Shown here: piece after piece, positions 3,729-63,898 of the stretch
How positions within the stretch are numbered: position 1 is the first letter of the stretch
Layout of the letters: every line of letters begins with the position of its first letter
From: an uncultured Candidatus Saccharibacteria bacterium
Lineage (GTDB): Bacteria; Patescibacteriota; Saccharimonadia; Saccharimonadales; UBA10212
NCBI GenBank assembly: GCA_964448095.1
Contig: CAYUUT010000004.1
Coordinates: 14,289-78,288, forward strand
DNA length: 64,000 nt
Direction: 5' to 3'
Made by a program: the position numbers and the translations under genes
Notes under the pieces: generated by a model
The model's database searches: none
What the model was told of the DNA's origin: nothing
Seen by the model: the letters and a program-made list of their open reading frames with translations, nothing else

Positions 3729-3754
3729 ACGAGAGAGGAAGGAGGTACGAACAC

Positions 3755-3793
3755 GGGCCCGACGACAGCGTCGTCGGGCCCGCTCTCTTTTTA
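3755..3793 (+). terminator. Rho-independent terminator (12-bp GC stem plus T-run)
   Basis: GGGCCCGACGAC (3755-3766), loop AGC, GTCGTCGGGCCC (3770-3781), followed by CTCTCTTTTTAT. It lies 27 nt after the stop of 3243..3728. Confidence 0.8.
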
Positions 3794-4893: not shown

Positions 4894-5156
4894 AAAATAA
4901 ATTCCTTTATGAATTAATTAGTTTATTAGTATTAATAGGGCCTGTGGTTAATGGGTATAAGATACTAGCCAACAACTTAAAAAGGGTCACTACAGGCTGT
5001 GGAGCCAAAACACTAAGCCGGTTAAAAGCTGTGGGGGAAATGCTTATAAAAAATACTTGACTTGTTAAGTATTTTTGGCCGGTTGCCATTTCCGAGTATA
5101 ACTTGCGGATTAACCCCAAACTATTCGCAACAAGGTCCACAGTTTCTGCACAAGTT
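4894..5156. other. dnaA-dnaN intergenic region with DnaA-box-like motifs and an AT-rich stretch (possible second oriC module / DUE)
   Basis: TGTGGTTAA at 4943-4951 (reverse complement TTAACCACA, 1 mismatch to TTATCCACA). TGTGGAG and TGTGGGGGAAA around 4999-5040. GGTCCACAG around 5135. Very AT-rich run 4894-4940 (ataaaataaattcctttatgaattaattagtttattagtattaat). Confidence 0.45.
5047..5076. repeat. Copy of the recurrent AT-rich palindrome (AAAAAAATACTTGAC-TT-GTTAAGTATTTTT)
   Basis: The core TACTTGACTTGTTAAGTA at 5054-5071 is the exact reverse complement of the copy at 12857-12874. Flanked by an A-run and a T-run. Confidence 0.8.
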
Positions 5157-6575: not shown

Positions 6576-6792
6576 TTAAGTTGTCTCAGTACCCTTACTA
6601 TAGAGAATGCCGAAGGGCTTTTCCACAGTTTCGACAAAAAACACTACAGTCCGGGGGCAAAAACGGCCGTAGAGAGAAAACTTGTACACAGCGACATTAC
6701 TAATCTGTTAATGTGTGGAAAAAAGTTGGCGATAAGTGGAAAACCTGCTAATATTTGTGGGTTAATATTGTGAATTTCACTCAAATTGAATT
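6576..6792. other. Candidate oriC: DnaA-box cluster between divergent dnaA and rpmH
   Basis: TTTTCCACA at 6619-6627. TTGTACACA at 6682-6690. TGTGGAAAA at 6714-6722 (reverse complement TTTTCCACA). AGTGGAAAA at 6735-6743. TGTGGGTTA at 6756-6764. Canonical position between dnaA and rpmH. Confidence 0.65.
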
Positions 6793-6930
6793 ATGCCTAA
6801 ACGAACTTACCAACCCAAAAAAGCTAAACGTGCCCGCCGGCACGGTTTTATAAAACGCATGAGCAGCCGGGCCGGGCAAAAGGTCCTAAAAAGCCGCCGC
6901 GACAAAGGCCGCACCAAGCTCTCAGCCTAG
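6793..6930 (+). CDS. rpmH: 50S ribosomal protein L34
   Basis: Not in the ORF track (45 aa). Hand translation gives [45 protein letters not shown], a canonical L34. Lies directly upstream of rnpA. Confidence 0.93.
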
Positions 6931-6969
6931 GCGATAGCTTAATTCGGCCAATTCTCTTATCCTATTAAG

Positions 6970-12818: not shown

Positions 12819-12851
12819 TACCTGTGCTTAAGTATAACAAAAACAGCGGTG

Positions 12852-12878
12852 AAAAATACTTAACAAGTCAAGTATTTT
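12852..12878. repeat. Copy of the recurrent AT-rich palindrome (AAAAATACTTAAC-AA-GTCAAGTATTTT)
   Basis: Core at 12857-12874. The stop codon of the 12868..13965 minus-strand CDS (TCA at 12868-12870) lies inside the motif. Confidence 0.8.
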
Positions 12879-13965
12879 CGGACGAGGCTTTTTTGTAAAC
12901 CTCTAAAGTCTGTTCAGCCATTCGCCGCCAGGAATATTTGGCGGCTTGTTTTTTGCCGGCATTTATCAGCTTTTGCCGCAGCTTGTCGTCATCTAATAGC
13001 TGGCTTATTTTGTCAGCCATGTCAGCGATGTCTAAAGGATCAAAATAATGCGCGGCTTGGCCGTAGATTTCCGGCAAGCACGTGGCGTCGCTGCTCAGTA
13101 CCGGCGCGCTGTGTGCCATAGCCTCCAAACCGGGCAAGCCAAAGCCCTCAGACAAACTAGGAAAAACATAGGCCTGGCAGTTTTCGTACAGCCAGCGCAA
13201 CTGGGATTCGCTGACAAAACCGGCGAATATCACTCCGGCAATTTTTTTCTTAGCGACTTTACGATCCAGCCGTTGGTATAGAAGATCTTTTCGGCCGGCT
13301 AGTACCAGCTTAAGTTCCGGCTGGTCTTTCTGTATTAACTGGAAGGCTTCAACTAGCCGCCATAAATTTTTGTGCGCCTGAGCGCGGCCAACGTACATAA
13401 TAAACTTCTTGTCAGCCAGTTCTTTAATTTCTTTAGCCGGCTCAGTAATCCTATCGGCAGCCTCATGGGTAACGACAATCTTGGCCGGGTCAATCCTGAC
13501 ATATTGTGCGACATCCATTTTTACGTATTCACTTGGTGTAATGACATATGCGGACTTGTGCGCCACTCGTTTAATGACCCGTTTATAGACCATTTGCTTA
13601 AATCCGAAGACCAGTCGGTTCTTGGCCGGATTTCTAAAGCGGGCTGTGGTCAAATCGTGAATTGTCGTGATGCTCGATCCAAAATACAAAATCGGCTGCT
13701 GGGTCATGCCAAAGTGCACCAGATTATTTTTGATGCTGTAAAGCTTCCATACAAAGCTGTACTGTTCGGCAAAACTAAACTCCTGGATATCGCAGCGAAC
13801 GATCTTAAAATCAGGCGCGATGTTCTTAAAAAAATCCAGACGGTGCCGTTTAGCCAGAATTACAAATTCGTCCTTGGACTTAAGTGCGTGAAGGTTTTCT
13901 ACCAGCTTATCGATATAGCGGCCAGTGCTGGTTCCCGACTCGCGAGCATCAATAATAATCCTCAT
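12868..13965 (-). CDS. Glycosyltransferase family 4 (GT-B fold)
   Basis: C-terminal GT1/GT4 signature (VFPSLSEGFGLPGLEAMAHSAPVLSS). 365 aa. Confidence 0.85.
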   Translation of the reverse strand: MRIIIDARESGTSTGRYIDKLVENLHALKSKDEFVILAKRHRLDFFKNIAPDFKIVRCDIQEFSFAEQYSFVWKLYSIKNNLVHFGMTQQPILYFGSSITTIHDLTTARFRNPAKNRLVFGFKQMVYKRVIKRVAHKSAYVITPSEYVKMDVAQYVRIDPAKIVVTHEAADRITEPAKEIKELADKKFIMYVGRAQAHKNLWRLVEAFQLIQKDQPELKLVLAGRKDLLYQRLDRKVAKKKIAGVIFAGFVSESQLRWLYENCQAYVFPSLSEGFGLPGLEAMAHSAPVLSSDATCLPEIYGQAAHYFDPLDIADMADKISQLLDDDKLRQKLINAGKKQAAKYSWRRMAEQTLEVYKKASSENT

Positions 13966-31089: not shown

Positions 31090-31647
31090 ATGGCGCTGAA
31101 TAAAAAATGGGGAGCTAAGATAGTAACCTTGGACGAATTCGCCAGCTTGCGGCCCAAACTCGGGAAAATTGTAGCCACTAGCGGCGGCTACGACCCTATA
31201 CATCCTGGTCATATCAGCTTAATAATTGAAAGTCGCAAATTTGGTAACACAGTAGTGGTTATAGTTAACAGCGATGATTTTTTAGTTGCAAAAAAGGGTA
31301 AGCCTTTTCAAAACTTGGCAACTCGCTGTTTGATTGTCAGCGGCATCAAGGAGGTTGACTATGTTGTGCCGGCAGTTACTGAAACTGACATGAGTGTCAA
31401 TGAGGCGCTAAAAGTAATTAAACCTCATGTTTATACAAAAGGCGGGGATACCGTCGATCCATCAACCATTCGTGAGTGGGAGGTGTGTAAGAAAAACGGC
31501 ACCAAAGTAGTGTTTGAAGTAGGCGAAGGCAAGGAATGGTCATCGAGTTGGTTCACTAAGGACTGGGATAAAACTATACATACACGAGCCATAAATAAAA
31601 CTAAGCACAAATTAAAAAATAAAGTTAATAAATACTTAACAAGTTAA
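31090..31647 (+). CDS. Cytidylyltransferase-like nucleotidyltransferase (RfaE domain II / TagD-like)
   Basis: The HxGH motif context SGGYDPIHPGHISLI and its ~185-aa size fit the family. The substrate cannot be assigned from sequence. Confidence 0.7.
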   Translation: MALNKKWGAKIVTLDEFASLRPKLGKIVATSGGYDPIHPGHISLIIESRKFGNTVVVIVNSDDFLVAKKGKPFQNLATRCLIVSGIKEVDYVVPAVTETDMSVNEALKVIKPHVYTKGGDTVDPSTIREWEVCKKNGTKVVFEVGEGKEWSSSWFTKDWDKTIHTRAINKTKHKLKNKVNKYLTS

Positions 31648-31653
31648 GTATTT
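31630..31653. repeat. Best copy of the recurrent palindrome: AAATACTTAAC-AA-GTTAAGTATTT
   Basis: 11-bp perfect arms. It contains the TAA stop (31645-31647) of the plus-strand CDS and abuts the stop (31652-31654) of the convergent minus-strand CDS. Confidence 0.85.
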
Positions 31654-33088
31654 AGCGGTCGAGCTCTTTGATGTTTACGTTGATTTTGTTGGAAGGATTC
31701 CAATCCAGTTCTGGATATGTCTTTAAGACTCTTAATATGTACTTCCGAAGTTTCTCGTAGCCAGCCTTGTCTTTGGACTCGAACTTGACAACTACATAAG
31801 GACCATTCTGGGAATAACGTACGACAAACATTGTGTCATCGGTCTCCAGCCGTAGTCCATCGCCAGCCCTTTCGTCATCAACCACCTCGGCGTTTTTAAA
31901 ATCTTCGCGAAGTTGTTTAGCGAGTCGCTCAACGAGACTTACTTTTTTATCATCTTCGCAGTAGACGTGGATTTGCGGACTGGATTCATATTGCGGCAGA
32001 GCGGCTACCATCTCTGACAATGACTGATTTGTACGGCTAAGCGCTTGGACAACGCGCATCGTAGAATAAGCACCGTCATCATGGTTGTAGAAGTCGGCTG
32101 AAAAAAAGAAGTGACCGGATAACTCACCGATGAATGCAGCCTTCACTTCTTGGTTTTTCTTCTTCAGGAATGAATGGCCAGTGCGCCACATAAACGGCTT
32201 ACCGCCATTAGCTTTTATAGTTTCTGGCACGACTTTTGAGCAAAGTAGGTTAAACATAATTATCGCGCCGGGGTGATCTCTTAATACATCAGTGGCAAAA
32301 AGGGCTACAAGTACGTCATTCCAAATTGGGTTGCCGTGTTCATCAACCATACCTACTCTGTCACCATCGGCGTCATAGGTAAAACCAACATCGGCTTGGC
32401 TGTCTCGGACTTCTTGACCCAGCCGCTCCATAATATGAATTTCCGTAGGGTCAGCCACACCCAAGGGAAAACCGGAATCGACTTTGGTATTGAATTCTAT
32501 AACTTCGCAGCCGGCTTTCCGCAGCAACTCAGGGATAATAATACCGGCAGTCGTATTGCTGGGATCGACGACAACTTTTAGTTTTCTGTCTAGATGCAGA
32601 CGTTCAAGCAGGTCAGAATAATAGGCTTGCAAAACGTCCTGTTTGGTAATCTTGCCGGTACTGGCGCCTTTCTTATAGTCTTCGCTCTCAACTAGTTTGC
32701 GAAGGTCTTGTATGCCTTCTGAAACTAGGGTCTCGGAATAATCATTGGCGAACTTAAAACCATTGAACTCCGGCGGATTGTGCGAGGCCGTCACGAAAAC
32801 GCCGCCAGGGATTTTTAAGTAATGTTGAGCCCAATAAAAAGTCCCGACCATCTGCATACCGATATCAATTACGTCTAAGCCAGCCCAGGCCAGGCCCTCC
32901 ATGATTTTCTGGGCATACATAGGGCTAGTCTCGCGGCAGTCATAGCCAACTACGGCTTTTGTTTGATCCTCGTGGGATAGAAGTGTTCCGTGAGCCCTGC
33001 CTAAGTGCAAAGCAAGCTCGGGGCTAAGATCTTTGCCGACCAGACCACGTAGATCATAGCCTCTAAATATACTTGGATTTACTTTCAT
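31652..33088 (-). CDS. Phosphomannomutase/phosphoglucomutase family (alpha-D-phosphohexomutase)
   Basis: Active-site loop VTASHNPPEFNGFKF, metal-binding FTYDADGDR and sugar-binding GELSGH. Confidence 0.88.
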   Translation of the reverse strand: MKVNPSIFRGYDLRGLVGKDLSPELALHLGRAHGTLLSHEDQTKAVVGYDCRETSPMYAQKIMEGLAWAGLDVIDIGMQMVGTFYWAQHYLKIPGGVFVTASHNPPEFNGFKFANDYSETLVSEGIQDLRKLVESEDYKKGASTGKITKQDVLQAYYSDLLERLHLDRKLKVVVDPSNTTAGIIIPELLRKAGCEVIEFNTKVDSGFPLGVADPTEIHIMERLGQEVRDSQADVGFTYDADGDRVGMVDEHGNPIWNDVLVALFATDVLRDHPGAIIMFNLLCSKVVPETIKANGGKPFMWRTGHSFLKKKNQEVKAAFIGELSGHFFFSADFYNHDDGAYSTMRVVQALSRTNQSLSEMVAALPQYESSPQIHVYCEDDKKVSLVERLAKQLREDFKNAEVVDDERAGDGLRLETDDTMFVVRYSQNGPYVVVKFESKDKAGYEKLRKYILRVLKTYPELDWNPSNKINVNIKELDR

Positions 33089-39296: not shown

Positions 39297-39779
39297 ATGG
39301 AAGAAAAAACTCAGGCTATTCGCCCAACCAAAAAACAAAAGGAACTACTGACTTTCATCGAAGATTTTATTGCCGAACATGGCTATAGTCCCAGCTATCG
39401 TGAAATTATGCAGGGAACTGGCCACACATCTGTAGCTACGGTCAGCCTACATGTTAACAACTTGATTCGGCGGGGCCATTTGCGCAAGCGCGACCGTTCG
39501 GCCCGCTCGCTGGAAGTAGTAAAGCCGAGTCTGGCCGCCGATAAAAAAATCATTCCTAAGCAGCTGAAAACCTCGGAAGAAAAGTGGCTGGTCGAAAAGG
39601 TCGAACAGTTTTTTAAAGAGGCTGAAAACACACCGAAGGTAACCGAAAGGGAGCTCGACCGGCTATATGTTCTAATTGGTGCACTCAAAGTTTTGGGGCT
39701 GGACGGCGCCGCCCAAGCATTCATTGCCCGGCTAAGTAGCCTTAAGCAAAAGCTGGACGATACCGAATACGCAGTTTAG
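39297..39779 (+). CDS. LexA-N-terminal-like winged-helix DNA-binding protein lacking the S24 peptidase domain
   Basis: [55 protein letters not shown] matches the LexA DNA-binding domain pattern. The C-terminal 80 aa are helical and show no Ala-Gly site or Ser/Lys dyad motifs. Confidence 0.65.
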
Positions 39780-41296
39780 TGAATAGCAGTGGCTGCGCCG
39801 GGCGCGCCACCTTCGGATGCCGTGGGATGGGCGTCATGGCTGCTGCGCAGTGGCACCTCTTTTATGAACCAGCTGGCAAAGAAAGCGATTGAAACAACCA
39901 GACCAGAAATTAGGAAAACGTCACCGATAGCATTTGACAGAGCACTTTGAATTGCTGGCGTAACGTTGCTAGCGCTTAAGTTAGACAATTGGCTTGCCGT
40001 AACACGAGTGGCGGTGTGAGCTAACTGATGACTAAGCCGGTTGTTAAGGATGCAGCCCATAACTGCTACGCCAACTGTGGCGCCTATGCTTCTGAACATT
40101 TGCACCGATGCCGTGACAACGCCCAGCCTTGAATGGGGAAAGGCATTTTGAACTATCAGGTTGAAAATAGGCATGCCGAGACCCAAACCGGCACCAAGCA
40201 ATATCATGTGCCTGGTTAATTGCGCGCTTGTAGTGCTTACGCTGACGGTACTCAACCATAACAGACCGATGGTAATGGCTGCCGTACCGCCAATTGCCAA
40301 TTTTTTGTAGCGACCAGTGCGCGACACTAACTGACCGGCAAAAACGCTGACGAACACTAAGCTTAAAACTAGCGGCGTCAGAATCACACCGGAATTAGTT
40401 GCCGTGCGTCTCAATACGTCTTGTGCGAACAACGGTATATAGAGAATTGCCCCGAACATTGCAAAGCCAATCAGGAAAACGATTAGCATCGATAGGCTAA
40501 AGGTATGATTTTTGAAGAGATCAAGTGGCAGAATAGCGTCGTGCGGCCGGCGGTGTTCGACGATGCCGAACAATACCAACAAGATTACCGATAAGCAAAA
40601 GATGCCAACTACCTCGAACGAGCCCCAAGCGTACTGGTTGCCGCCCCAGACAAACCCCAAGAGTAAGCTGGTTAAGCCGCCAGCCAGCAGGCCGGCGCCC
40701 AGATAGTCGATGACCCTCCGGCCCTTGGCGGGAATGTGCGGCATGAAGCTGCTAATCATAAAGAAAGCCAGAATGCCTACGGGCACGTTTACGTAAAAAA
40801 TCCAACGCCAGCTGGCGTGGTCAGTCAGATAGCCGCCCAGCAACGGGCCAAGCACACTGGCCAGTCCGAATACAGCACCAATGATGCCTTGCCAACGCCC
40901 GCGTTCTTTGGGCGAGAACAAATCACCAATAACCGCGAAGGCACTGCTCATGAGCATACCGGCTCCCACACCCTGCAAAGCCCTGAATATAATAAGTTCG
41001 GCCATATTTTGCGATAAGCCGCTTAGCGCTGAGCCCAATACGAAAATAAAAATTGAAGTTAAAAATATTTTTTTACGGCCGTAAATGTCGGACAGCTTAC
41101 CAGCTATTGGCACGGCTATCGTAGAAGTTAGCAAATAGGCTGTAACAACCCAGCTAAGATCTCTCAGGCCATGTAGCTCGGATACAATTCGGGGCAGGGC
41201 GGTTGCGACTATGGTCTGATCCAATGCAGCCAGTAACATACCGCTCATGACAGCCAGCATAATAGTTATCTTTTGTCTGATGGGCAGGTCAATCAT
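39776..41296 (-). CDS. MFS transporter, DHA2 (EmrB/QacA-like, 14-TMS) drug:H+ antiporter family
   Basis: [13 protein letters not shown] and [13 protein letters not shown] motifs. 506 aa. Directly downstream of marR. Confidence 0.85.
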
Positions 41297-41734
41297 TTAT
41301 AAATCCTTACTTTTGTTTAGTGATACTACGAACATTTTTTGCGATAAACGCTTAAATTCTTCCAGCTCCTTAGCGCTGAGCGAATCAAGCGACGAACGAA
41401 TCCCAGCGTATTTATATTTATTTAGCTGATGCAAAACTTTTTTGCCGTTGGAACTAAGGCTAAGGCGGACTACTCGGCGGTCGTGCGCATCATTGCGGCG
41501 GCGCACCAAATCTTTATCTACCAAAGGCTCCAGCAACTGAGTAACGGCGCTCTTGCTAATACCCAGATAATCCGCGACGTCCTTGGGGTTGACCTGGTGG
41601 TGGTAGGAAATCATATAGAGCATGCCCAGTTGCGCATGCGACAGGCCGCTGGCTTTCCAGCCGGAATTAAATGCCGGCCGCTGACACTTGGCCAAATTCT
41701 CGACAATCTCTTGTATAAGTTCTGCTCTGCCCAT
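41297..41734 (-). CDS. MarR-family transcriptional regulator
   Basis: A winged-helix core (LSHAQLGMLYMI...DVADYLGISKSAVTQLLEPLVDKDLVRRRNDAHDRRVVRLSLSSNGKK). Confidence 0.88.
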   Translation of the reverse strand: MGRAELIQEIVENLAKCQRPAFNSGWKASGLSHAQLGMLYMISYHHQVNPKDVADYLGISKSAVTQLLEPLVDKDLVRRRNDAHDRRVVRLSLSSNGKKVLHQLNKYKYAGIRSSLDSLSAKELEEFKRLSQKMFVVSLNKSKDL

Positions 41735-41742
41735 AAATAATA

Positions 41743-41773
41743 GTTTAGCTACTTAAATATTAACTAACTAAAC
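41743..41773. promoter_or_regulatory. Imperfect 14-bp-arm palindrome, candidate MarR operator
   Basis: GTTTAGCTACTTAA-ATA-TTAACTAACTAAAC, with 12/14 arm positions complementary. Begins 9 nt upstream of the marR start codon. Confidence 0.45.
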
Positions 41774-41806
41774 CATTATTGTCAAGCTATGTATCCAGGA
41801 TGCCAA

Positions 41807-46469: not shown

Positions 46470-46660
46470 GTGGCCCAGTTTGTGCTAATATTAAAGTCCG
46501 TTAACAATTTGATTGCTGGAATCCGGTGTGAGTCCGGAACTGTGCCGCAACGGTAAGTCGCGAATGCGAACGAGTCCGATACAGCAAACACTAATAAGTG
46601 TCTCGCGCAAGACCAGGATTTATAGAATTTTATCCTTCTTGTAACGAGGCAAGGAGGATT
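46470..46660 (+). promoter_or_regulatory. Cobalamin (B12) riboswitch-like leader with SD-sequestering helix
   Basis: Core GGAATCCGGTGTGAGTCCGGAACTGTGCCGCAACGGTAAG (46518-46557) closely parallels the E. coli btuB leader GGGAATCCAGTGCGAATCTGGAGCTGACGCGCAGCGGTAAGG, recalled from memory. B12-box-like GAGTCCGATACAGC at 46572-46585. ATCCTTCTTG (46632-46641) can pair with CAAGGAGGAT (46650-46659), which contains the RBS. Confidence 0.7.
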
Positions 46661-46664
46661 TTTT

Positions 46665-47045
46665 ATGAGCCGAGTAGCTCTAACCAAAGTAAAAAAGTTA
46701 ATTATTACCAGCGTCGTTGTAATTACCGCAGCCGGCAGCATTACTGGCGCTGTGATTGCCAATTCGCCCAGCCACAAGGTAGGTACGACACTTAACGCCC
46801 AGCATCAAGTCACATATATTACTTATCGTGGTGAAAACGGCACGGACGCTCTAACGCTGCTAAAAAAGCATGCCCAGGTCCAGGTCAAACACTATTCCTT
46901 TGGCGACCTGGTCACGTCAATTAACGGCAGCACCGGCAACGGCCCCAAATACTGGACTTTTTACATTAACGGCAAAGAGGCTCAAGTTGGCGCGGGCTCA
47001 TATGTGACTAAAAATAGCGATACACTTTCATGGAAATTGCAGTAA
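46665..47045 (+). CDS. DUF4430-domain protein (transcobalamin-like fold; putative extracytoplasmic B12-binding protein)
   Basis: N-terminal TM/signal anchor. GTDALTLLKKHAQVQVKHYSFGDLVTSINGSTGNGPKYWTFYINGKEAQVGAGSYVTKNSDTLSWKL is the typical DUF4430 pattern. Strong RBS AAGGAGG. Confidence 0.75.
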   Translation: MSRVALTKVKKLIITSVVVITAAGSITGAVIANSPSHKVGTTLNAQHQVTYITYRGENGTDALTLLKKHAQVQVKHYSFGDLVTSINGSTGNGPKYWTFYINGKEAQVGAGSYVTKNSDTLSWKLQ

Positions 47046-47572
47046 TGAAAAAAATAAACACAAATATTTTAATCGCATTTGTACTTATAACCTTGGCCGT
47101 CACGCTTAGACTGCTGCCGCATCCGGCAAACTTTGCACCTGTCGCAGCGGTCGCCATTTTTGGCGGAGCCGTGCTGCCGCGCAGGCTAGCGGTGTGGACG
47201 CCGCTTCTGGCCATGGTCGTATCCGATATATTTATTGGTTTTTACAGCACGATTCTGGTCACCTGGGCGTGCTATGCATTGATAGCTTTGGCCAGTAGCT
47301 ATTGGCTAAGGAAACCGAATCTGGCCAAAGGCGCAGCCTTAATATTATCGGGCTCGTTATTCTTTTTTACGGTTACTAATTTCTCGGTCTGGCTATGGGG
47401 CGGTATGTACGCCCACACTTGGAGCGGGCTAGCAGAGTGCTACAATATGGCGCTGCCATTCTTCCGTAACACAGCTATGAGTGACCTGGTTTACACTGGG
47501 GCTTTGTTTGGATTGTATTCGTTAGCCGCTCGGCTAGCGTCCAAAACCGAAGCCAAAGTCTTTGTTAAATAA
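47045..47572 (+). CDS. Small 6-TM membrane protein, candidate vitamin (cobalamin) transporter / ECF-S-component-like
   Basis: TLRLLPHPANFAPVAAVAIFGG N-terminal motif. About 175 aa, highly hydrophobic. Start TAATG overlaps the DUF4430 stop. Co-transcribed behind the B12 riboswitch-like leader. Confidence 0.6.
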   Translation: MKKINTNILIAFVLITLAVTLRLLPHPANFAPVAAVAIFGGAVLPRRLAVWTPLLAMVVSDIFIGFYSTILVTWACYALIALASSYWLRKPNLAKGAALILSGSLFFFTVTNFSVWLWGGMYAHTWSGLAECYNMALPFFRNTAMSDLVYTGALFGLYSLAARLASKTEAKVFVK

Positions 47573-47573
47573 A

Positions 47574-47591
47574 TTCTTATCTTGTTAAGTA
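47574..47591. repeat. Degenerate copy of the recurrent palindrome (TTCTTATC-TT-GTTAAGTA)
   Basis: 2 mismatches to TACTTAACTTGTTAAGTA. It fills the 20-bp gap between the convergent stops at 47572 and 47593. Confidence 0.6.
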
Positions 47592-47592
47592 C

Positions 47593-49347
47593 CTAGGCTT
47601 TAGCACGTTTTAAACTCGTCAGGCTTTGAACAACGGTGTGGCCGAGTTTTTTGCGCCGGACTTTCCCTTGCTCTACGCCGTGATTTTTTTTGAGATATCT
47701 AATGTGTGCTTCCCGGGCGCGCTTAAAGTCGCTCTTGCGCAAGCCGGACTTACGCACGAAGGCGCTGACTTGCTCGCCGCCAATGAAATGCGGCAGAATC
47801 ACGTAGCTGGCGCCGTGGTCATAAAGTGTGCCAGCTTGTTTGGGCCCATCAGCTTGGGCAATGACTACCGCTTCGGAATGCTTTCGGTGCAAGAACTCCA
47901 GCAGCGCTAAGTCCGCCGGCATATCGGTGACGGTGGAAACAATTAGTTTGGCTTTAGCGACGTTAGCTTCTTCTAGCAGCTCGACGTCGGTGGCGTCGCC
48001 ATAGAGATGGTTAATTTTGCGCTGTTCTAACAGATCAACAATTTCCGGATCGTAATCTATGACCACGAAATTTTTCGTCAACTGCCGGAAGACTTTTACG
48101 AATTCGTGGCCGCCTTTTTGATAGCCAATCAGCACCATTTCATAATCGTGCGTGACGGCTGGTTCGCCATGCGTGTCTTTACGCTCAAAGATGCCTAGAT
48201 ATTTCTCCAGCCTGGAGTAGATACGGTCGCTGAAAATTATTAAATAGGACGAAGCGGCGATAGAAACTAGGGCAATAAAGATTATAGCGGTAACGGCGCT
48301 AGCATTAATCAAACCGCGCTTCTCGGCCAGCAGTACAACGACTATGGAAAATTCACTGACTTGCGCTAGAGCAACCGAGGTTTTAAAACTAGTGCGCTTG
48401 GTGTACCCTAGGTAGCCCATCAGCGCCATGGCCACTAGCGGTTTGACGACAATGGCAATAAATACTGCCACTAAAATTATGCTCAGCATCGAGCCGATGT
48501 GGTGCAAGTTGAGGTTGGCTCCCAGAGCGATAAAAAAGACGATAACAAAAAAGTCGCGCAGCGGGCGCAGGCGCGAGGAAATTTCCTGGGCATAGGGCTG
48601 GGTAGCCAGGAGGATGCCGGCTAGCAGCGCACCAATTTCGCTACTTAGGCCGATTTTCTGGAATAATGCGGCACTGCCCAAGCCCCAGGCAATAGCGAAC
48701 AAAAATAATAGCTCTTGGCCGTCGGAGATAAATTTGTGCATTCGTGGCAGCAGCCGGTCGCTAGCCCAGTACAGTAATATAGCGATGATCCCGCCCTTTA
48801 TAGCCAGCGCTATTGCCGAACCTAACGCCAGCGAACGGCTGCTGCCAGCCGAGGTAAAGACTACCAAAACGATAGCAATCATGTCTTGAACCAGCGATAT
48901 GCTGATAGCCAGCTTGCCATATAGCCGCGCCTGCTCGTGCTTATCGCTCAATATTTTAAGGATGATTATAGTACTGGAGACCGCCAGGCTAGCGCCTAAG
49001 AATGCTGCCGTGGTGCCGTTCAAGCCCATGTGTGTGCCGACTAGCCAACCCAAGGCGGTAATCACGCCAACCTGGGCCACACCGACAATCGTTGCCGTAC
49101 GGCCAACTTCTCTGAGGGCTTGCGGGTTTAACCCCAGCCCTATAATAAATAGCAGCAGGGCTATGCCCAGATCGGCAAACAAGGCTAAGGTATCAGGCGA
49201 CTTGGTGATATGAAAAACTGCCGGGCCAACGATGATGCCAGTAACGATATAACCAATGATTTGCGGCTGGCCAATCCAGCGCATTATAAAAGCCACGGCC
49301 GCGGCTACAACTATGATTAAACTCAAGCCACCAAAGACTGTATCCAT
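47593..49347 (-). CDS. Cation:proton antiporter (CPA2/Kef-type) with C-terminal RCK/TrkA-N domain
   Basis: N-terminal Na_H_exchanger-type TM domain (QPQIIGYIVTGIIVGP) and a C-terminal Rossmann-like VLIGYQKGGHEFVKVF region. Confidence 0.85.
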   Translation of the reverse strand: MDTVFGGLSLIIVVAAAVAFIMRWIGQPQIIGYIVTGIIVGPAVFHITKSPDTLALFADLGIALLLFIIGLGLNPQALREVGRTATIVGVAQVGVITALGWLVGTHMGLNGTTAAFLGASLAVSSTIIILKILSDKHEQARLYGKLAISISLVQDMIAIVLVVFTSAGSSRSLALGSAIALAIKGGIIAILLYWASDRLLPRMHKFISDGQELLFLFAIAWGLGSAALFQKIGLSSEIGALLAGILLATQPYAQEISSRLRPLRDFFVIVFFIALGANLNLHHIGSMLSIILVAVFIAIVVKPLVAMALMGYLGYTKRTSFKTSVALAQVSEFSIVVVLLAEKRGLINASAVTAIIFIALVSIAASSYLIIFSDRIYSRLEKYLGIFERKDTHGEPAVTHDYEMVLIGYQKGGHEFVKVFRQLTKNFVVIDYDPEIVDLLEQRKINHLYGDATDVELLEEANVAKAKLIVSTVTDMPADLALLEFLHRKHSEAVVIAQADGPKQAGTLYDHGASYVILPHFIGGEQVSAFVRKSGLRKSDFKRAREAHIRYLKKNHGVEQGKVRRKKLGHTVVQSLTSLKRAKA

Positions 49348-54024: not shown

Positions 54025-54558
54025 ATGCGACCCAAAGTCTACATTTTTAGGGGAGCTCCTGCGAGTGGCAAAGGAACAATTGTGCCCGAATTTGCCAAAA
54101 AATTACCTAAGCCAGTGGCGTTGATTGAACAGGATAAGCTTCGCTGGGAGTTTCATCTCATCGGTCGTAAAATAGAAGAAGTCGACGACGAAGAACACCG
54201 TTTCGCCTTCGAAAATACACTGCTGATTTATGAGCAATATCTGAAGAGGCATAAGTACACCATCATTTTGGAAGGCTTATTTACCTGGGATGACAAAAAT
54301 GCCAGCCAGGGCAATGTCAGACAGTTGGCAGAATTAGCTATGCGCTACGATTTACCCTGGACTTCTATTGTTCTAGTCGCGGATAAGGAAGAGCTGCTCA
54401 AACGTAATTCAGCTCGGGAGTACGCGGTACCATCTGGTGAGTTCAACATGCTCTACGAAAAAATTTACACTATGATTGATCCATCAGAAATTGTAATTAA
54501 TTCCACCGGAAAAACTGCCGGGGAAACTCTTAAAGAACTCGACCTCAAGATTACTTAA
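54025..54558 (+). CDS. P-loop kinase-like protein (AAA_33/zeta-toxin-like fold), substrate unknown
   Basis: Walker A FRGAPASGKGT. 177 aa. Confidence 0.6.
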   Translation: MRPKVYIFRGAPASGKGTIVPEFAKKLPKPVALIEQDKLRWEFHLIGRKIEEVDDEEHRFAFENTLLIYEQYLKRHKYTIILEGLFTWDDKNASQGNVRQLAELAMRYDLPWTSIVLVADKEELLKRNSAREYAVPSGEFNMLYEKIYTMIDPSEIVINSTGKTAGETLKELDLKIT

Positions 54559-54569
54559 CAAGTTAAGTA
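54552..54569. repeat. Perfect-core copy of the recurrent palindrome (TACTTAAC-AA-GTTAAGTA)
   Basis: Identical 18-mer to 31633-31650. It contains the TAA stop (54556-54558) of the kinase-like CDS and is followed by TTTATT. Confidence 0.85.
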
Positions 54570-54588
54570 TTTATTCTGCGGTATCATA

Positions 54589-59883: not shown

Positions 59884-60468
59884 ATGCGTTACCGGACAGA
59901 CCGGCTCGATGAGCACGTAATTGAGCTGCTGCAAAACGGCGGCGTTGGTTTTATGCCCAGCGATACGATTTATGGCTTGTCTTGCCGGGCCTTAGACGAG
60001 CAAGCCGTTGAGCGAATCTATGCCTTGAAGAAACGTGATTCCGAGAAACCCCTAATTGTTTTAATCGCTACAATTTCGCAGCTGGATGAACTAGGCATTA
60101 AAAGAGACCAGGCAAGCCTAGCTGAGCAATATTGGCCTGGAGGTCTAACTCTAGTTTGTGAAGCGCCGGGAGCGCCGGCCTATCTGCATAGAGGAACTCA
60201 GAGCTTAGCGGTACGTTTACCTGATAATAATGACCTGCGAGATTTTATGCTAAAAACCGGACCGTTAGTGAGCACTAGTGCCAATACCCAGGGAGACGCA
60301 ATCGCTAGTTCAATTAAAGACGCCGAAACTTATTTTGGGGAACAGCTGGATTTTTACGTAGACGCCGGCGATTTGTCGGAGCATAAACCGTCAACTCTGG
60401 TACGGGCGGTAAATGGTAAGCTGGAGGTAGTAAGAGAGGGAGCAGTTAAAGTCAAGGAGGATTTATGA
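59884..60468 (+). CDS. tsaC: L-threonylcarbamoyladenylate synthase (TsaC/YrdC family)
   Basis: GGVGFMPSDTIYGLSCRA, IYALKKRDSEKPLIVLI and STSANTQGD motifs. Confidence 0.85.
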   Translation: MRYRTDRLDEHVIELLQNGGVGFMPSDTIYGLSCRALDEQAVERIYALKKRDSEKPLIVLIATISQLDELGIKRDQASLAEQYWPGGLTLVCEAPGAPAYLHRGTQSLAVRLPDNNDLRDFMLKTGPLVSTSANTQGDAIASSIKDAETYFGEQLDFYVDAGDLSEHKPSTLVRAVNGKLEVVREGAVKVKEDL

Positions 60469-60788
60469 CGTTTAATGATTATCAGAAGAAAGCCATGACC
60501 ACAGCGATTGACGAGGGCAGTGAACTTGAACAAAGAGTCCTGGGTCTAGTCGGCGAAAGCGGAGAGATAGCCGACAAAGTCAAGAAGTGGTATCGCGACC
60601 AAGGTGGGGATTTGGCCAAATTGGATAAAAAAGACCTGGCGGCCGAGCTGGGCGACGTACTCTGGTATGTTGCAACTTTTGCCGATTTTCTGGGCTACAA
60701 TCTAGACACTATCGCTCAAGAAAATATCGCCAAATTGGCCAGGCGAAATCAACGCGGGAGACTAACAGGCAGCGGCGATAACAGATAA
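60465..60788 (+). CDS. MazG-like nucleotide pyrophosphohydrolase
   Basis: ExxE-type helices (LVGESGEIADKV... ELGDVLWYV). Confidence 0.8.
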   Translation: MTFNDYQKKAMTTAIDEGSELEQRVLGLVGESGEIADKVKKWYRDQGGDLAKLDKKDLAAELGDVLWYVATFADFLGYNLDTIAQENIAKLARRNQRGRLTGSGDNR

Positions 60789-60795
60789 AAATAAA

Positions 60796-60813
60796 TACTT
60801 AACGAGCTAAATT
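60796..60813. repeat. Degenerate copy of the recurrent palindrome (TACTTAAC-GA-GCTAAATT)
   Basis: The left arm is perfect and the right arm is eroded, giving 4 mismatches overall. Flanked by AAATAAA and TTTTTTATT, between the convergent stops at 60788 and 60816. Confidence 0.45.
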
Positions 60814-60815
60814 TT

Positions 60816-61463
60816 TTATTCGGAATGGCGGGTTAGTTTTTGCGGATTGTTGTCCAGGCTTTGCCATAAATACCAGCTGGCTACGGATTCGTACGGGTGC
60901 CAGCTATTCTTGTTGGCGATAGTGATAATTTGCTCTGGAGATGGCAATTCCTTGAGGCTGTACATGTTTTGGATAGACTTACGGATACCCAGATCGCCAA
61001 CCGGCAAGATATCCAAGCGGCCCAAGCCGAACATCATGAACATATGGGCGCTCCACTCACCAATGCCCTTAACAGCCGTTAGCTGCTCTGTCAGCTGTTC
61101 GTTGGGCATAGTTGATATGTGCTCCAGGTCCAGCCGCTTGTCCAGAATGTGCGCTGCCAGGTCCTTCATGTAGCCGATTTTGGGATAGCTTACGCCGCAA
61201 GCCCGGATTTTATCGGCGTCCATATTGATTAATTGCTGAGGGGTAGGCATTTTGCCGCCGAATAAATCTAAAACTCGCCGCCAAATAGTACCTCCGGCCT
61301 TAGTGCTGAGCTGCTGGCCAACAATGCTGCTAACCAGCTCACCGTAGTGGTCCGGGTGCGGTTTTATGCGGCACGGGCCGCTGTTTTTTATAACCGGTGC
61401 CAGTTTTTTATCATGGGCAGTCAGATATTTTTCGGCCTGGCGTAGTTTTGAATCGAAAGTCAC
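60816..61463 (-). CDS. DNA-3-methyladenine glycosylase II (AlkA-like, HhH-GPD superfamily)
   Basis: HhH motif LTAVKGIGEWSAHMFMMFGLGRLDILPVGDLGIRK with the catalytic Asp context. Confidence 0.82.
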   Translation of the reverse strand: MTFDSKLRQAEKYLTAHDKKLAPVIKNSGPCRIKPHPDHYGELVSSIVGQQLSTKAGGTIWRRVLDLFGGKMPTPQQLINMDADKIRACGVSYPKIGYMKDLAAHILDKRLDLEHISTMPNEQLTEQLTAVKGIGEWSAHMFMMFGLGRLDILPVGDLGIRKSIQNMYSLKELPSPEQIITIANKNSWHPYESVASWYLWQSLDNNPQKLTRHSE

Positions 61464-61878: not shown

Positions 61879-62606
61879 ACTTCGAAGTCTAAAATCAAAG
61901 CCTTGTGGTCAGAGACTACTTCGTCAGAGGCGTAGAACTTTTTAACCTCGATAGCGTGATTGACAAAAATATAATCACAAACCTCGCTCTTGGTTGTCAG
62001 AGCTGTTCTGGTGGTCTTTAGATGATGCTCGACTGATAAATTACGCAGACGCTGGCTGATCAGTCCTATGGACTGGCTATGCGGCGCCAGGTTAAAATCA
62101 CCAGTTAAAATTATTGGACCCCTAAGATCATCTATGTAATCACCCAGTTGTTCCATCTGCCGCAGCGTTTCCGAATTACCATTTTTATGCTCGGCAATCC
62201 AGTAACCGTGGTGGGTCAGAACGTTTAAAGTTTTTCCATCGACTTTGATGACTGCGTGCACAAAATTGCGCATGTTGGCTATCTGCTGCTTATGGTGATT
62301 ATAATCTGGCTCATACTGCATGCTGATAAAAACCACTTCAGAATTTTGGATTGGCCAACGGCTAAGTATGGCGTTGCCATAGTGAGCTACGCTGGACATA
62401 TATTTGAACGAAAATGCTGGGCCGAAAGCTTTGTAGGACAACCCGGCAGCGGCTTGCATCAATTCTAAATTGAGAAACAGGCCAGAGCTTCGATCTAAAC
62501 TAATCCCTTCTTGCGTGCAAATTATGTCGGCTTGTTCCTGCTTAAAAAAGTCGGTAATTGCTCGTTCTAAGCGTCCATTCCAAGTATTTAATTGGATTAA
62601 TTTCAT
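61875..62606 (-). CDS. Endonuclease/exonuclease/phosphatase (EEP) family protein
   Basis: MKLIQLNTWNG...ADIICTQE N-terminal motif and C-terminal SDHKALILDF. The chosen ATG at 62606 overlaps the upstream stop (ATGA). Confidence 0.8.
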   Translation of the reverse strand: MKLIQLNTWNGRLERAITDFFKQEQADIICTQEGISLDRSSGLFLNLELMQAAAGLSYKAFGPAFSFKYMSSVAHYGNAILSRWPIQNSEVVFISMQYEPDYNHHKQQIANMRNFVHAVIKVDGKTLNVLTHHGYWIAEHKNGNSETLRQMEQLGDYIDDLRGPIILTGDFNLAPHSQSIGLISQRLRNLSVEHHLKTTRTALTTKSEVCDYIFVNHAIEVKKFYASDEVVSDHKALILDFEV

Positions 62607-63898
62607 AAGAGAAATTCCTTCCGTAGCCACTCGTCCAGGGAACCGCTGCCACCGGCGCTAAAAGCCAGTACCAAATCACCACTATCCAGATGCGATTTAA
62701 TTGCATTTTTAAGCTCAAGGGTTAACTCAAAAGGCTGTGCGTGGGCCTTTGTAGAATTACTTAACATGTTAAGTAATTTTGTAGGTGTTAAAAGTTCCAA
62801 ATCTTTATTTTCTCTAGCTAAATAGCTAGGTACTATATAGAGCATTTTCACCTTATCGAATAAAGTCGCTAATTCGTCCTTAATAAAGTGCTGGCGAGTG
62901 TTATGCAGGCCCTCATAAACCACCACTACATTGTCTCCGGCAACTTCATTGGCCAGCTGCAGTGCACCGCGGATTTTAGGTGGTGTATGGGCATAATCGC
63001 TGTAAAGATTAGGCGCGATTTGTTCAAAGCGCCGAGACAGACCAGGGAAAGAATTAAGCGTTTGGATTAACTCTGGCAAAGGTCTGCCAATAACTTCTTG
63101 CAGAGCATTGGCTACCAACCAGGCATCCAAACGGTTGACGTGACCTACAAGCTTCAGCTCGTGGTCTATCTGGGGGTCATTTTGGCCCAAAGACTTTAGC
63201 GCCTCAGAACTCTCCAGGCCTAACTTATCCTTATCTTCCTGCCACAGAAAAGTCTGGCGGCTCTGGCCGAGAAACTGCTTAAATGCATCATTGTATTCCT
63301 GCAGGGTGGGATAAATATCTGGATGGTCCCAATCCAGACCACTTATTAAGGACAAATAAGGCCGGAAAGCCAGGAAATTATGATCGTATTCGTCGGCCTC
63401 GTAAATGAAGTACTTACTCTCGGTATCAAAATTACCCATTTCGCCAAAACTAAGTTTAGCTCCGACCGAGTAACTCACCGGCAGCCCTAGTTGCTTGAAT
63501 AGCCACACCGCCATGGCTGTGGTGGTGGTTTTACCGTGCGTGCCCGCGATGGCAATTAGTTTCAGACTTTTATCTTCTATGAGCTGGTTAAGGAACTCAT
63601 CGCGCTTGCTGGTCTTGATGCCATTCTGGCGGCAAAACTCCAGTTCGGCATGGTTAGGGTCGGTTCTGGGCAAAGCTGAGCTGTAGACAAACCAGTCAAT
63701 TGGTTTAGCGGCGTGGATTTTGGCTATTTGTTCGGTTGTTTGACCGATAGTAATGTCGCTAATACCTTTTGATCGCAGATATTCAATATAACTACTGTCG
63801 ACGAGATCGGAGCCAGAAACGTCAAAGCCAGCCTGCTTGGCTATCAGTGCGAGCGGCCCTATGCCGGCTCCGCCAATTCCTGAAAAGAAAATATACAT
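62603..63898 (-). CDS. Mur ligase family protein, MurC/Mpl-like (UDP-N-acetylmuramate--L-alanine ligase-like)
   Basis: IFFSGIGGAGIGPLALIAKQAGFDVSGSD, P-loop AGTHGKTTTTAM, EADEYDHNFL and DWDHPD. At 431 aa it is somewhat shorter than a typical MurC. Confidence 0.8.
   Translation of the reverse strand: MYIFFSGIGGAGIGPLALIAKQAGFDVSGSDLVDSSYIEYLRSKGISDITIGQTTEQIAKIHAAKPIDWFVYSSALPRTDPNHAELEFCRQNGIKTSKRDEFLNQLIEDKSLKLIAIAGTHGKTTTTAMAVWLFKQLGLPVSYSVGAKLSFGEMGNFDTESKYFIYEADEYDHNFLAFRPYLSLISGLDWDHPDIYPTLQEYNDAFKQFLGQSRQTFLWQEDKDKLGLESSEALKSLGQNDPQIDHELKLVGHVNRLDAWLVANALQEVIGRPLPELIQTLNSFPGLSRRFEQIAPNLYSDYAHTPPKIRGALQLANEVAGDNVVVVYEGLHNTRQHFIKDELATLFDKVKMLYIVPSYLARENKDLELLTPTKLLNMLSNSTKAHAQPFELTLELKNAIKSHLDSGDLVLAFSAGGSGSLDEWLRKEFLL
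62755..62778. repeat. Intragenic perfect 24-bp palindrome AATTACTTAACA|TGTTAAGTAATT (variant of the recurrent motif)
   Basis: Exact self-complementarity read directly from the sequence. It lies inside the murC-like CDS and encodes ...LLNMLSN.... Confidence 0.85.

Follow-up and report, generated by a model that had tools for sequence, protein, structure and literature searches.

The 64,000-nucleotide stretch analyzed here, referred to as the window, comes from an uncultured Candidatus Saccharibacteria bacterium (contig CAYUUT010000004.1, positions 14,289 to 78,288) and is a compact segment of bacterial chromosome, ~48% GC, that carries rnpA-yidC-jag, dnaA-dnaN-recF and many envelope glycosyltransferase genes. 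Between and within its genes recurs a short palindrome, which we regard as the putative operator of a MarR-family repressor of Saccharibacteria. The motif, TACTTAAC-NN-GTTAAGTA, consists of two 8-nt arms around a 2-nt centre; with the centre AA the exact 18-mer is TACTTAACAAGTTAAGTA, and the wider consensus is (A/T)TACTT(A/G)AC-NN-GTTAAGTA(T/A). It is also written AATACTTRACNNGTTAAGTATT in matrix form and AATACTTAACAAGTTAAGTATT as the predicted target of the regulator. When the 64-kb window was searched for TACTTAACAAGTTAAGTA, allowing 3 mismatches, six loci accounted for 11 strand-matches vs. 0.04 expected from dinucleotide shuffles, and a scan for the arms only gave seven sites with no more than 3 arm mismatches vs. 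0.4 in mononucleotide shuffles. At 4-5 arm mismatches the counts fall to the level of chance. The seven sites (5054, 12857, 31633, 47574, 54552, 60796, and 62758) all lie where the original prediction had placed them, and its judgment that chance recurrence is negligible is borne out by these counts. A half-site that it had also noted at 1410-1420 is present, but because single half-sites occur at about chance frequency it was left out of the count.

Two copies are exact with the centre AA. The core of the first (31633-31650) lies in a palindrome of 31629-31654, whose arms extend 4 bp further on each side. This copy fills the 4-nt gap between two convergent genes, 31090-31647 (+, cytidylyltransferase-like) and 31652-33088 (-, phosphoglucomutase, PGM), includes the TAA stop codon of the former, and is predicted to form an RNA hairpin of -9 kcal/mol. 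An orthologous copy is kept at the 3′ end of the PGM gene in L041, where PGM is 77% identical (L-numbers denote fetched loci). The second exact copy (54552-54569) spans the TAA stop codon of an AAA_33 gene (54025-54558, +) and lies directly upstream of a TauE-family gene, whose likely ATG (54595) is 25 nt past the copy, with a -10-like TATCAT (54582-54587) 12 nt on. Judged by its sequence context, this position is operator-like. An exact orthologous copy is found upstream of the TauE gene in L049, and in L203 a TauE gene directly follows a MarR gene. The copy at 12857-12874 has one mismatch, reads TACTTGACTTGTTAAGTA on the minus strand, and spans the TGA stop codon of a glycosyltransferase gene (12868-13965, -). 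A second glycosyltransferase gene comes next, its ATG (12818) 38 nt past the copy, with a TATACT -10-like hexamer at 12831-12836; the predicted RNA hairpin of this copy is -12.2 kcal/mol. It is the exact reverse complement of the copy at 5054-5071, as had been claimed, with one arm mismatch in each. The 5054 copy (TACTTGACTTGTTAAGTA) is found in the 263-bp dnaA-dnaN spacer, 86 nt past the dnaA stop codon and ~160 nt upstream of dnaN, and is flanked by A5 and T6 runs. It has no counterpart in the orthologous dnaA-dnaN spacer of L092, in which DnaA is 78% identical to that of the window. The same spacer holds the first of two clusters of DnaA-box-like 9-mers (no more than 2 mismatches to TTATCCACA), which are enriched on either side of dnaA, with five in the 263-bp spacer (4894-5156) and six in the 394 bp upstream (6576-6969) vs. 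3.3/kb window-wide; the arrangement suggests a two-part origin. The 5054 copy sits within this first cluster, and an 85-aa open reading frame (ORF) is called across it (L126 11412-11669).

Two further copies are degenerate and do not fold as hairpins. That at 47574-47591, with 2 uncompensated mismatches, fills a 20-nt convergent gap between 47030-47572 (+, DUF6580) and 47593-49347 (-, Na+/H+ exchanger); in the orthologous gap of L014 the two arms are 75 nt apart. A search of the window against Rfam at gathering thresholds returned only a tRNA and a borderline, partial cobalamin riboswitch match, with no match at the palindrome copies; the riboswitch match (46518-46582, +; 32.1 bits vs. a gathering score of 31.5; model positions 47-167 of 189) lies upstream of the ORFs 46665-47045 and 47030-47572 (DUF6580). 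The other degenerate copy (60796-60813, 3 mismatches) lies in a 27-nt convergent gap between 60465-60788 (+, MazG) and 60816-61463 (-, HhH-GPD glycosylase). In L026 the orthologous copy is exact, whereas L049 and L097 lack it. The seventh copy (62758-62775) has exact arms and the centre AT, and lies in frame in a Mur-ligase gene (62603-63898, -), where it encodes LLNMLS. An exact copy is present at the orthologous codons in L122 and L125, and the site is lost in L049 (LLKLLS). Orthologous window sites are thus both conserved (PGM, TauE, and Mur) and turned over (MazG and dnaA-dnaN). The original prediction was right about the overlaps with stop codons, where the encoded proteins end in YLTS (gene end 31647), IT (54558) and NT before TGA (minus-strand gene, end 12868). 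It had placed four copies in convergent gaps, of which we count three (31633, 47574, and 60796), and the association with the region downstream of stop codons does not extend to 62758, which lies inside an ORF and 155 nt before its stop.

To see how far the motif extends, a species-representative genome collection was scanned with the pattern TACTTAACWWGTTAAGTA, which returned at least 118 stretches. The figures given below for exact copies, host genes, and host GC content refer to the matches listed. About 100 of these stretches belong to metagenome-assembled genomes (MAGs) of Candidatus Saccharibacteria, Saccharimonadales, or Patescibacteria, and the 18-mer is rarely found outside Candidatus Saccharibacteria; a scan of a viral collection for the 18-mer gave seven stretches. 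Motif-bearing hosts range from 36 to 59% GC, and among the ValRS proteins in which the motif occupies the same codons, pairwise identity is only 38-44%; the word is therefore old and maintained at the DNA level. Between 59 and 64 of the 123 exact copies lie in frame inside long ORFs, always in the one stop-free frame, and encode (I/L)LN(K/M/L)LS(I/N). Orthologous genes have them at the same positions, as seen for RecX (20 loci), ValRS (seven), FolD (five), ApbE, a class-V aminotransferase, TsaB-like, GatB, Dus, SHMT, and Mur ligase. Among the exact non-coding copies, 13 are in convergent and two in divergent junctions, and most non-coding copies contain or adjoin a stop codon. On one 776-kb contig, exact copies are spread over at least 270 kb. 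An apparent clustering at the origin, read from contig block positions, was discarded, as these positions may reflect the order of data storage. Searches of the literature by sequence and for Saccharibacteria uptake sequences, palindromes, and terminators found no relevant mention of the motif.

A few occurrences stand apart. The RecX gene of L054 (1427-1708) holds two exact copies 93 nt apart and a degenerate third, at equivalent positions of repeated three-helix domains. The RecX site of the Saccharibacteria type is also found in L115 (Verrucomicrobiia) and L116 (Dormiibacterota). A MAG labelled Candidatus Babeliales (DATIIZ01, SMAG_U15678) has the motif on four contigs (L026, L032, L041, and L069); as proteins of L026 and L041 are 59-77% identical to PGM, MazG, and HhH-GPD of the window, it is probably a mislabelled or contaminated Saccharibacteria bin. 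Split versions occur at L014 7706-7796 (75 nt between the arms, with an inner hairpin) and, in a 26-nt class, at L010 2216-2257 and 3260-3301 and at L034 7173-7214. Overlapping tandem versions, TACTTAACTTGTTACTTAACAAGTTAAGTA, occur on two contigs of one MAG (L050 6347-6376 and L087 2262-2291).

Many near-identical copies at gene 3′ ends, together with rare split (26-nt and 75-nt inserts) and overlapping tandem versions, could be the signature of a palindrome that is mobile or copied, whether a transposase or a templated process spreads it, in the manner of repetitive extragenic palindromic (REP) sequences and bacterial interspersed mosaic elements (BIME). Those elements, too, are imperfect palindromes and occupy convergent gaps and the 3′ ends of genes. 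However, REPs are strictly extragenic, species- or genus-specific, ~35 nt long, and mobilised by REP-associated tyrosine transposases (RAYTs), whereas the conservation here ends at about ±4 bp, is class-wide across genomes of such different GC content, and includes in-frame copies at the same codons in lineages as distant as those of the ValRS proteins above. The idea that the arms are terminal repeats of a small element was also ruled out, since the 2-nt gap dominates (134 cases) and gaps of 26 or 75 nt are rare. We give almost no credence to an origin of this kind.

A more specific association emerged when the genes beside the non-coding copies were clustered. Three Saccharibacteria loci have a copy 25-44 nt upstream of a MarR-family gene, and two loci that had been fetched for other copies (L033 and L080) hold the same MarR gene, each with a 1-mismatch copy upstream. 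L080 belongs to the same MAG (CAZVAN01) as L092, mentioned above for its DnaA. As an unbiased test, 80 metagenome loci were chosen by similarity of the MarR protein alone, 75 of which had sufficient upstream sequence. The motif is found upstream of the MarR gene with no more than 3 mismatches in 61 of these 75 loci, where it ends 5-56 nt before the start codon, and with no more than 5 in 73. In 57 of 65 distinct promoter copies, position 6 is G, which turns the left arm into TTGAC, a -35 element, and in 51 of the 65 a TAnnnT starts 9 or 10 nt past the motif. This layout of TTGACn, 17-18 nt, and TAnnnT indicates that the palindrome covers the predicted -35 element and the spacer of the regulator's own promoter, and five more loci found by exact protein look-ups (L208-L212) have the same arrangement.

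The regulator itself is a winged-helix protein of ~130-155 aa that scores above the cut-offs of Pfam MarR and MarR_2 and matches solved MarR structures in sequence. Its recognition helix, Q(T/S)EA(S/N)(I/V)SRQ, is conserved among the homologues, and those that are named are all from Saccharibacteria. The gene usually lies downstream of rsmA and is often followed by a gene for an MFS transporter in the same orientation, and once by TauE. A longer gene order is seen in L208 (1-10432) and in L210 and L211 (2108-10387): PGK, TIM, one further gene, UvrD/PcrA, DUF348-G5, RsmA, an optional NUDIX gene, and MarR. Proteins of the MarR family recognize palindromes as dimers, using helix alpha-4 and the wing, and repress their own genes (PMC6401476). 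The palindrome has the matching geometry, a dyad with 8-bp arms 2 nt apart, arm centres 10 bp apart, and A/T flanks, and by analogy the promoter layout is that of a standard MarR autorepressor operator. At nearly every homologue locus the palindrome lies on the regulator's promoter: the left arm provides the -35 element (TTGACn), the right arm fills the spacer, and the TAnnnT -10 element follows after 9-10 nt. In the mechanism that we propose, a dimer bound to the two arms, one helical turn apart, would shut off transcription of the regulator, because the palindrome covers its promoter. At a probability of roughly 65%, we consider the palindrome to be the operator of this Saccharibacteria MarR-family repressor and the window copies to be extra sites for the same protein. 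One alternative offered in the original prediction, a site for a dimeric DNA-binding protein, thereby gains support, and the promoter position at MarR loci narrows it to the putative operator of this regulator.

Two other MarR genes deserve mention. The window has a MarR-MFS operon of its own (MarR 41297-41734, -, and 39776-41296, -), with a different imperfect palindrome, GGTTTAGTTAGTTAATATTTAAGTAGCTAAACT, in the upstream region 41745-41775, directly before the start codon. This MarR was rejected as the cognate regulator, as a BLASTP comparison with the L080 MarR was not significant (best E = 3.1) and its upstream palindrome is a different one; it is an unrelated paralogue. In three Bacteroidetes genomes (Cyclobacteriaceae, Fulvivirga, and Saprospiraceae), two copies of the palindrome lie ~30 bp apart (L017 3130-3178, L057 3536-3583, and L077 3055-3104). 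In L017 and L057 the paired copies are directly upstream of a MarR-family gene, which is followed in L057 by a cysteine-synthase-like gene, and in L077 a homologous Bacteroidetes MarR gene lies ~1 kb away. Since the Bacteroidetes MarR is unrelated to that of Saccharibacteria, this suggests independent use of the same operator word.

The closest precedents are found among well-studied members of the family. The consensus site of SlyA, TTAGCAAGCTAA, lies 22 bp upstream of slyA (PMC5797941), and both SlyA and RovA bind many sites beyond their own promoters (PMC6401476). The Saccharibacteria system resembles these in having an AT-rich dyad, a predicted MarR-family dimer as its reader, and a copy directly upstream of the regulator gene, and the central 12 nt of the motif, TTAACAAGTTAA, agree with the SlyA consensus at 10 of 12 positions, as does cTTAACAAGTTAAg. 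In contrast, the Saccharibacteria protein is distant from SlyA (17-25 bits vs. a cut-off of 120 with the SlyA NCBIfam model), its site is longer (18-22 bp) and much more strictly conserved, and the extra copies lie at stop codons, in convergent gaps, and in core genes rather than in AT-rich promoters of acquired genes. Classical MarR/marO autorepression with a linked efflux pump offers a second parallel: in Saccharibacteria, too, the regulator gene has a palindrome over its own -35 element and spacer, and an MFS transporter often comes next in the same orientation. The marO sites of E. coli read TACTTGCC-NG-GGCAA, close to TACTTGAC of our motif. Unlike the classical system, in which one or two operators serve a single locus, the 64 kb of the window contain seven, none of them near the regulator gene.

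The abundance and spread of the copies bear on two further explanations. The density is 1/9 kb in the window and 1/26 kb in motif-anchored genome loci; in the MarR-anchored loci it is 1/14 kb at up to 3 mismatches and 1/61 kb at up to 1, and several 20-kb loci have none. Contigs with the MarR gene also hold dispersed copies, 34 in 489 kb at up to 3 mismatches. Saccharibacteria are naturally transformable via ComEC (PMC10633639), and a clade-specific word found at gene ends, and in coding DNA where the peptide is tolerated, recalls the DNA uptake sequences (DUS) of Neisseria and the uptake signal sequences (USS) of Haemophilus, which accumulate in Neisseriaceae and Pasteurellaceae by biased uptake and recombination and form hairpins at gene ends when paired. 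The original prediction had listed such a signal among its alternatives. Known uptake-sequence systems have about one copy per kb, that is, a density 10-70 fold higher than that of ~1/14-68 kb in unbiased loci or 1/9 kb here; their single units lack dyad symmetry, and they hold no fixed promoter position, whereas the best-conserved copy of the palindrome is locked inside a promoter, 17-18 nt from the -10 element. The literature searched contains no Saccharibacteria uptake sequence; in the Cell 2023 transformation paper, the word 'motif' does not occur in the main text and the palindrome is absent from the supplementary sequences. We therefore regard an uptake sequence accumulated in naturally competent Saccharibacteria as very unlikely.

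The site could also be read by another protein that organises the chromosome (parS/ParB, Noc, or a SlyA-like nucleoid protein), with the MarR promoter as one target among others. The dyad of 18-22 bp and an estimated tens of copies per genome in coding and non-coding DNA would suit such a protein, as would the position of the window, which adjoins dnaA and is 3-5 fold denser in copies than other loci. The window lacks a canonical parS; the palindrome is unlike TGTTNCACGTGAAACA, so that its identification with parS was rejected, and parS matches in the window are at chance level. However, the internal copies are hosted by dispersed housekeeping genes, the exact copies on the 776-kb contig are spread over at least 270 kb, and the density within the window does not drop with distance from dnaA. 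The fixed promoter geometry at the MarR gene, moreover, implicates the MarR protein itself, and we consider a separate organising protein to be improbable.

The RNA-level properties of the palindrome lead to a stronger competitor, in which the element would be primarily an RNA hairpin at transcript 3′ ends, either as the lineage-specific bidirectional terminator that the original prediction had envisaged or as a 3′-end stabiliser, and only secondarily would it resemble a MarR operator. The predicted folding energy of intact copies is -7.5 to -12 kcal/mol (z-scores down to -3.5), and most non-coding copies adjoin or contain a stop codon. The 13:2 excess of convergent over divergent junctions is found even though the two kinds are equally frequent, as they alternate along the chromosome, and three convergent gaps of the window hold nothing but a copy. 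The flanks of dispersed copies also covary. Position ±1 is paired in 77-81% of dispersed copies vs. 47-60% expected, as A..T or T..A, which in the encoded proteins appears as I..I (27) and L..N (21) vs. I..N (10) and L..I (1); in intergenic copies the pairing reaches ±4, with extensions up to 10 bp. The promoter copies at MarR genes have no such covariation. A genome-specific preference of the protein was rejected as the cause of the ±1 covariation, as both A..T and T..A forms occur within single genomes, and template-switch mutation as the sole cause is weakened by the lack of covariation at promoter copies.

Nevertheless, long ORFs hold about half of the exact copies, in frame and at positions shared between orthologs. 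All but two pairs of the stem are A-U, and the flanks are symmetric, with 3.6 A upstream vs. 3.7 T downstream in 8 nt, so that no extra U-tract is present. The palindrome thus has neither the GC-rich stem and U-tract of a classical intrinsic terminator, which the original prediction had rightly doubted as the explanation, nor the restriction to sites outside genes and the compensated stem expected of a terminator in general. Its eight invariant stem pairs and variable loop would be unusual in the evolution of an RNA hairpin. Among the pairs of near-copies with up to 3 mismatches, 1 is compensated, 18 are G-T, and 48 are mismatched, and the two degenerate window copies have lost the fold; decay without compensation implies that sequence, and not pairing alone, is read. 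The window also has a canonical terminator at 3754-3782, a perfect 13-bp GC-rich hairpin with a T-rich tail between a 161-aa ORF and the end of dnaN, which indicates that the organism uses ordinary terminators. Termination as the primary role is therefore not sustained, and we judge a principal function as an RNA hairpin unlikely. The covariation in the flanks of dispersed copies nevertheless leaves room for a hairpin at gene ends as a secondary role.

If the palindrome is the operator of the MarR-family repressor, its seven window copies would be additional and mostly better sites, being fully symmetric. At the same-strand junctions at 12857 and 54552, the copy abuts the upstream stop codon, with a -10-like hexamer and the ATG of the next gene no more than 45 nt away. 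The link of these two copies to stop codons is explained by compaction, which brings the hexamer and next ATG within ~45 nt of the previous stop. The copies in the convergent gaps (31633, 47574, and 60796; gaps of 4-27 nt) and the intragenic copy at 62758 cannot control initiation. At these, in what is the weakest step of the proposal, the bound protein together with the weak hairpin of the transcribed palindrome might act as a boundary or roadblock to elongating polymerase. Intragenic roadblock operators are known for PurR, in purB, and for CcpA and CodY, whose sites lie within ORFs. The non-promoter copies may resemble these in that repressor sites in ORFs or at gene ends would act on elongating polymerase, but the known roadblocks are single and gene-specific, whereas here one perfect site recurs in many unrelated housekeeping genes. 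It is conceivable, as a tentative extension, that one branch of Saccharibacteria has co-opted a MarR-family repressor as a genome-wide boundary factor, with combined roadblocks and hairpins serving as bidirectional stops or conditional attenuators. In that case, a genome too compact for ordinary terminators might have retained the sites across deep divergence, both next to stop codons or between convergent genes and within the reading frames of the core genes for ValRS, RecX, FolD, GatB, and Mur ligase.

Several observations weigh against the operator interpretation. MarR regulators normally have few sites, and no regulatory logic is obvious for conserved perfect sites that fill convergent gaps or lie within the reading frames of ValRS, RecX, FolD, GatB, and others. 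No -10 signal is enriched beside the dispersed copies overall, and dispersed copies as promoters with the geometry of the MarR gene were rejected, as there is no TAnnnT peak at +9/+10. At many loci with the MarR gene, no further copy occurs within 20 kb, so that lineages differ in how far the copies are dispersed. The 64 kb of the window do not include the cognate MarR gene, which is seen with its operator in a relative, MAG CAZVAN01 (L080), and not in the genome of the window itself. Finally, the covariation of the dispersed-copy flanks is not predicted if a dimer reads the half-sites independently; because it is found there and not at the promoter copies, the transcribed dispersed copies are under a hairpin-level constraint, on RNA or single-stranded DNA, beside sequence recognition.

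To our knowledge, almost nothing has been established about gene regulation in Patescibacteria, which have very few transcription factors. The putative regulator and operator would be a pair of an ordinary kind but new for the phylum, conserved across many Saccharibacteria lineages, with a candidate regulon that would include the gene of the regulator itself as well as an MFS pump and a TauE-family exporter. Because Saccharibacteria are transformable (PMC10633639), the regulator could be deleted and the sites mutated in cultivable carriers. The unusual part is the conserved perfect copies in and between housekeeping genes. The in-frame copies show a constraint at the DNA level that shapes protein sequence, as in the coupled I..I and L..N residues, and if the non-promoter copies are protein-dependent transcription boundaries, they would represent a new means of punctuating transcription in a minimal genome.

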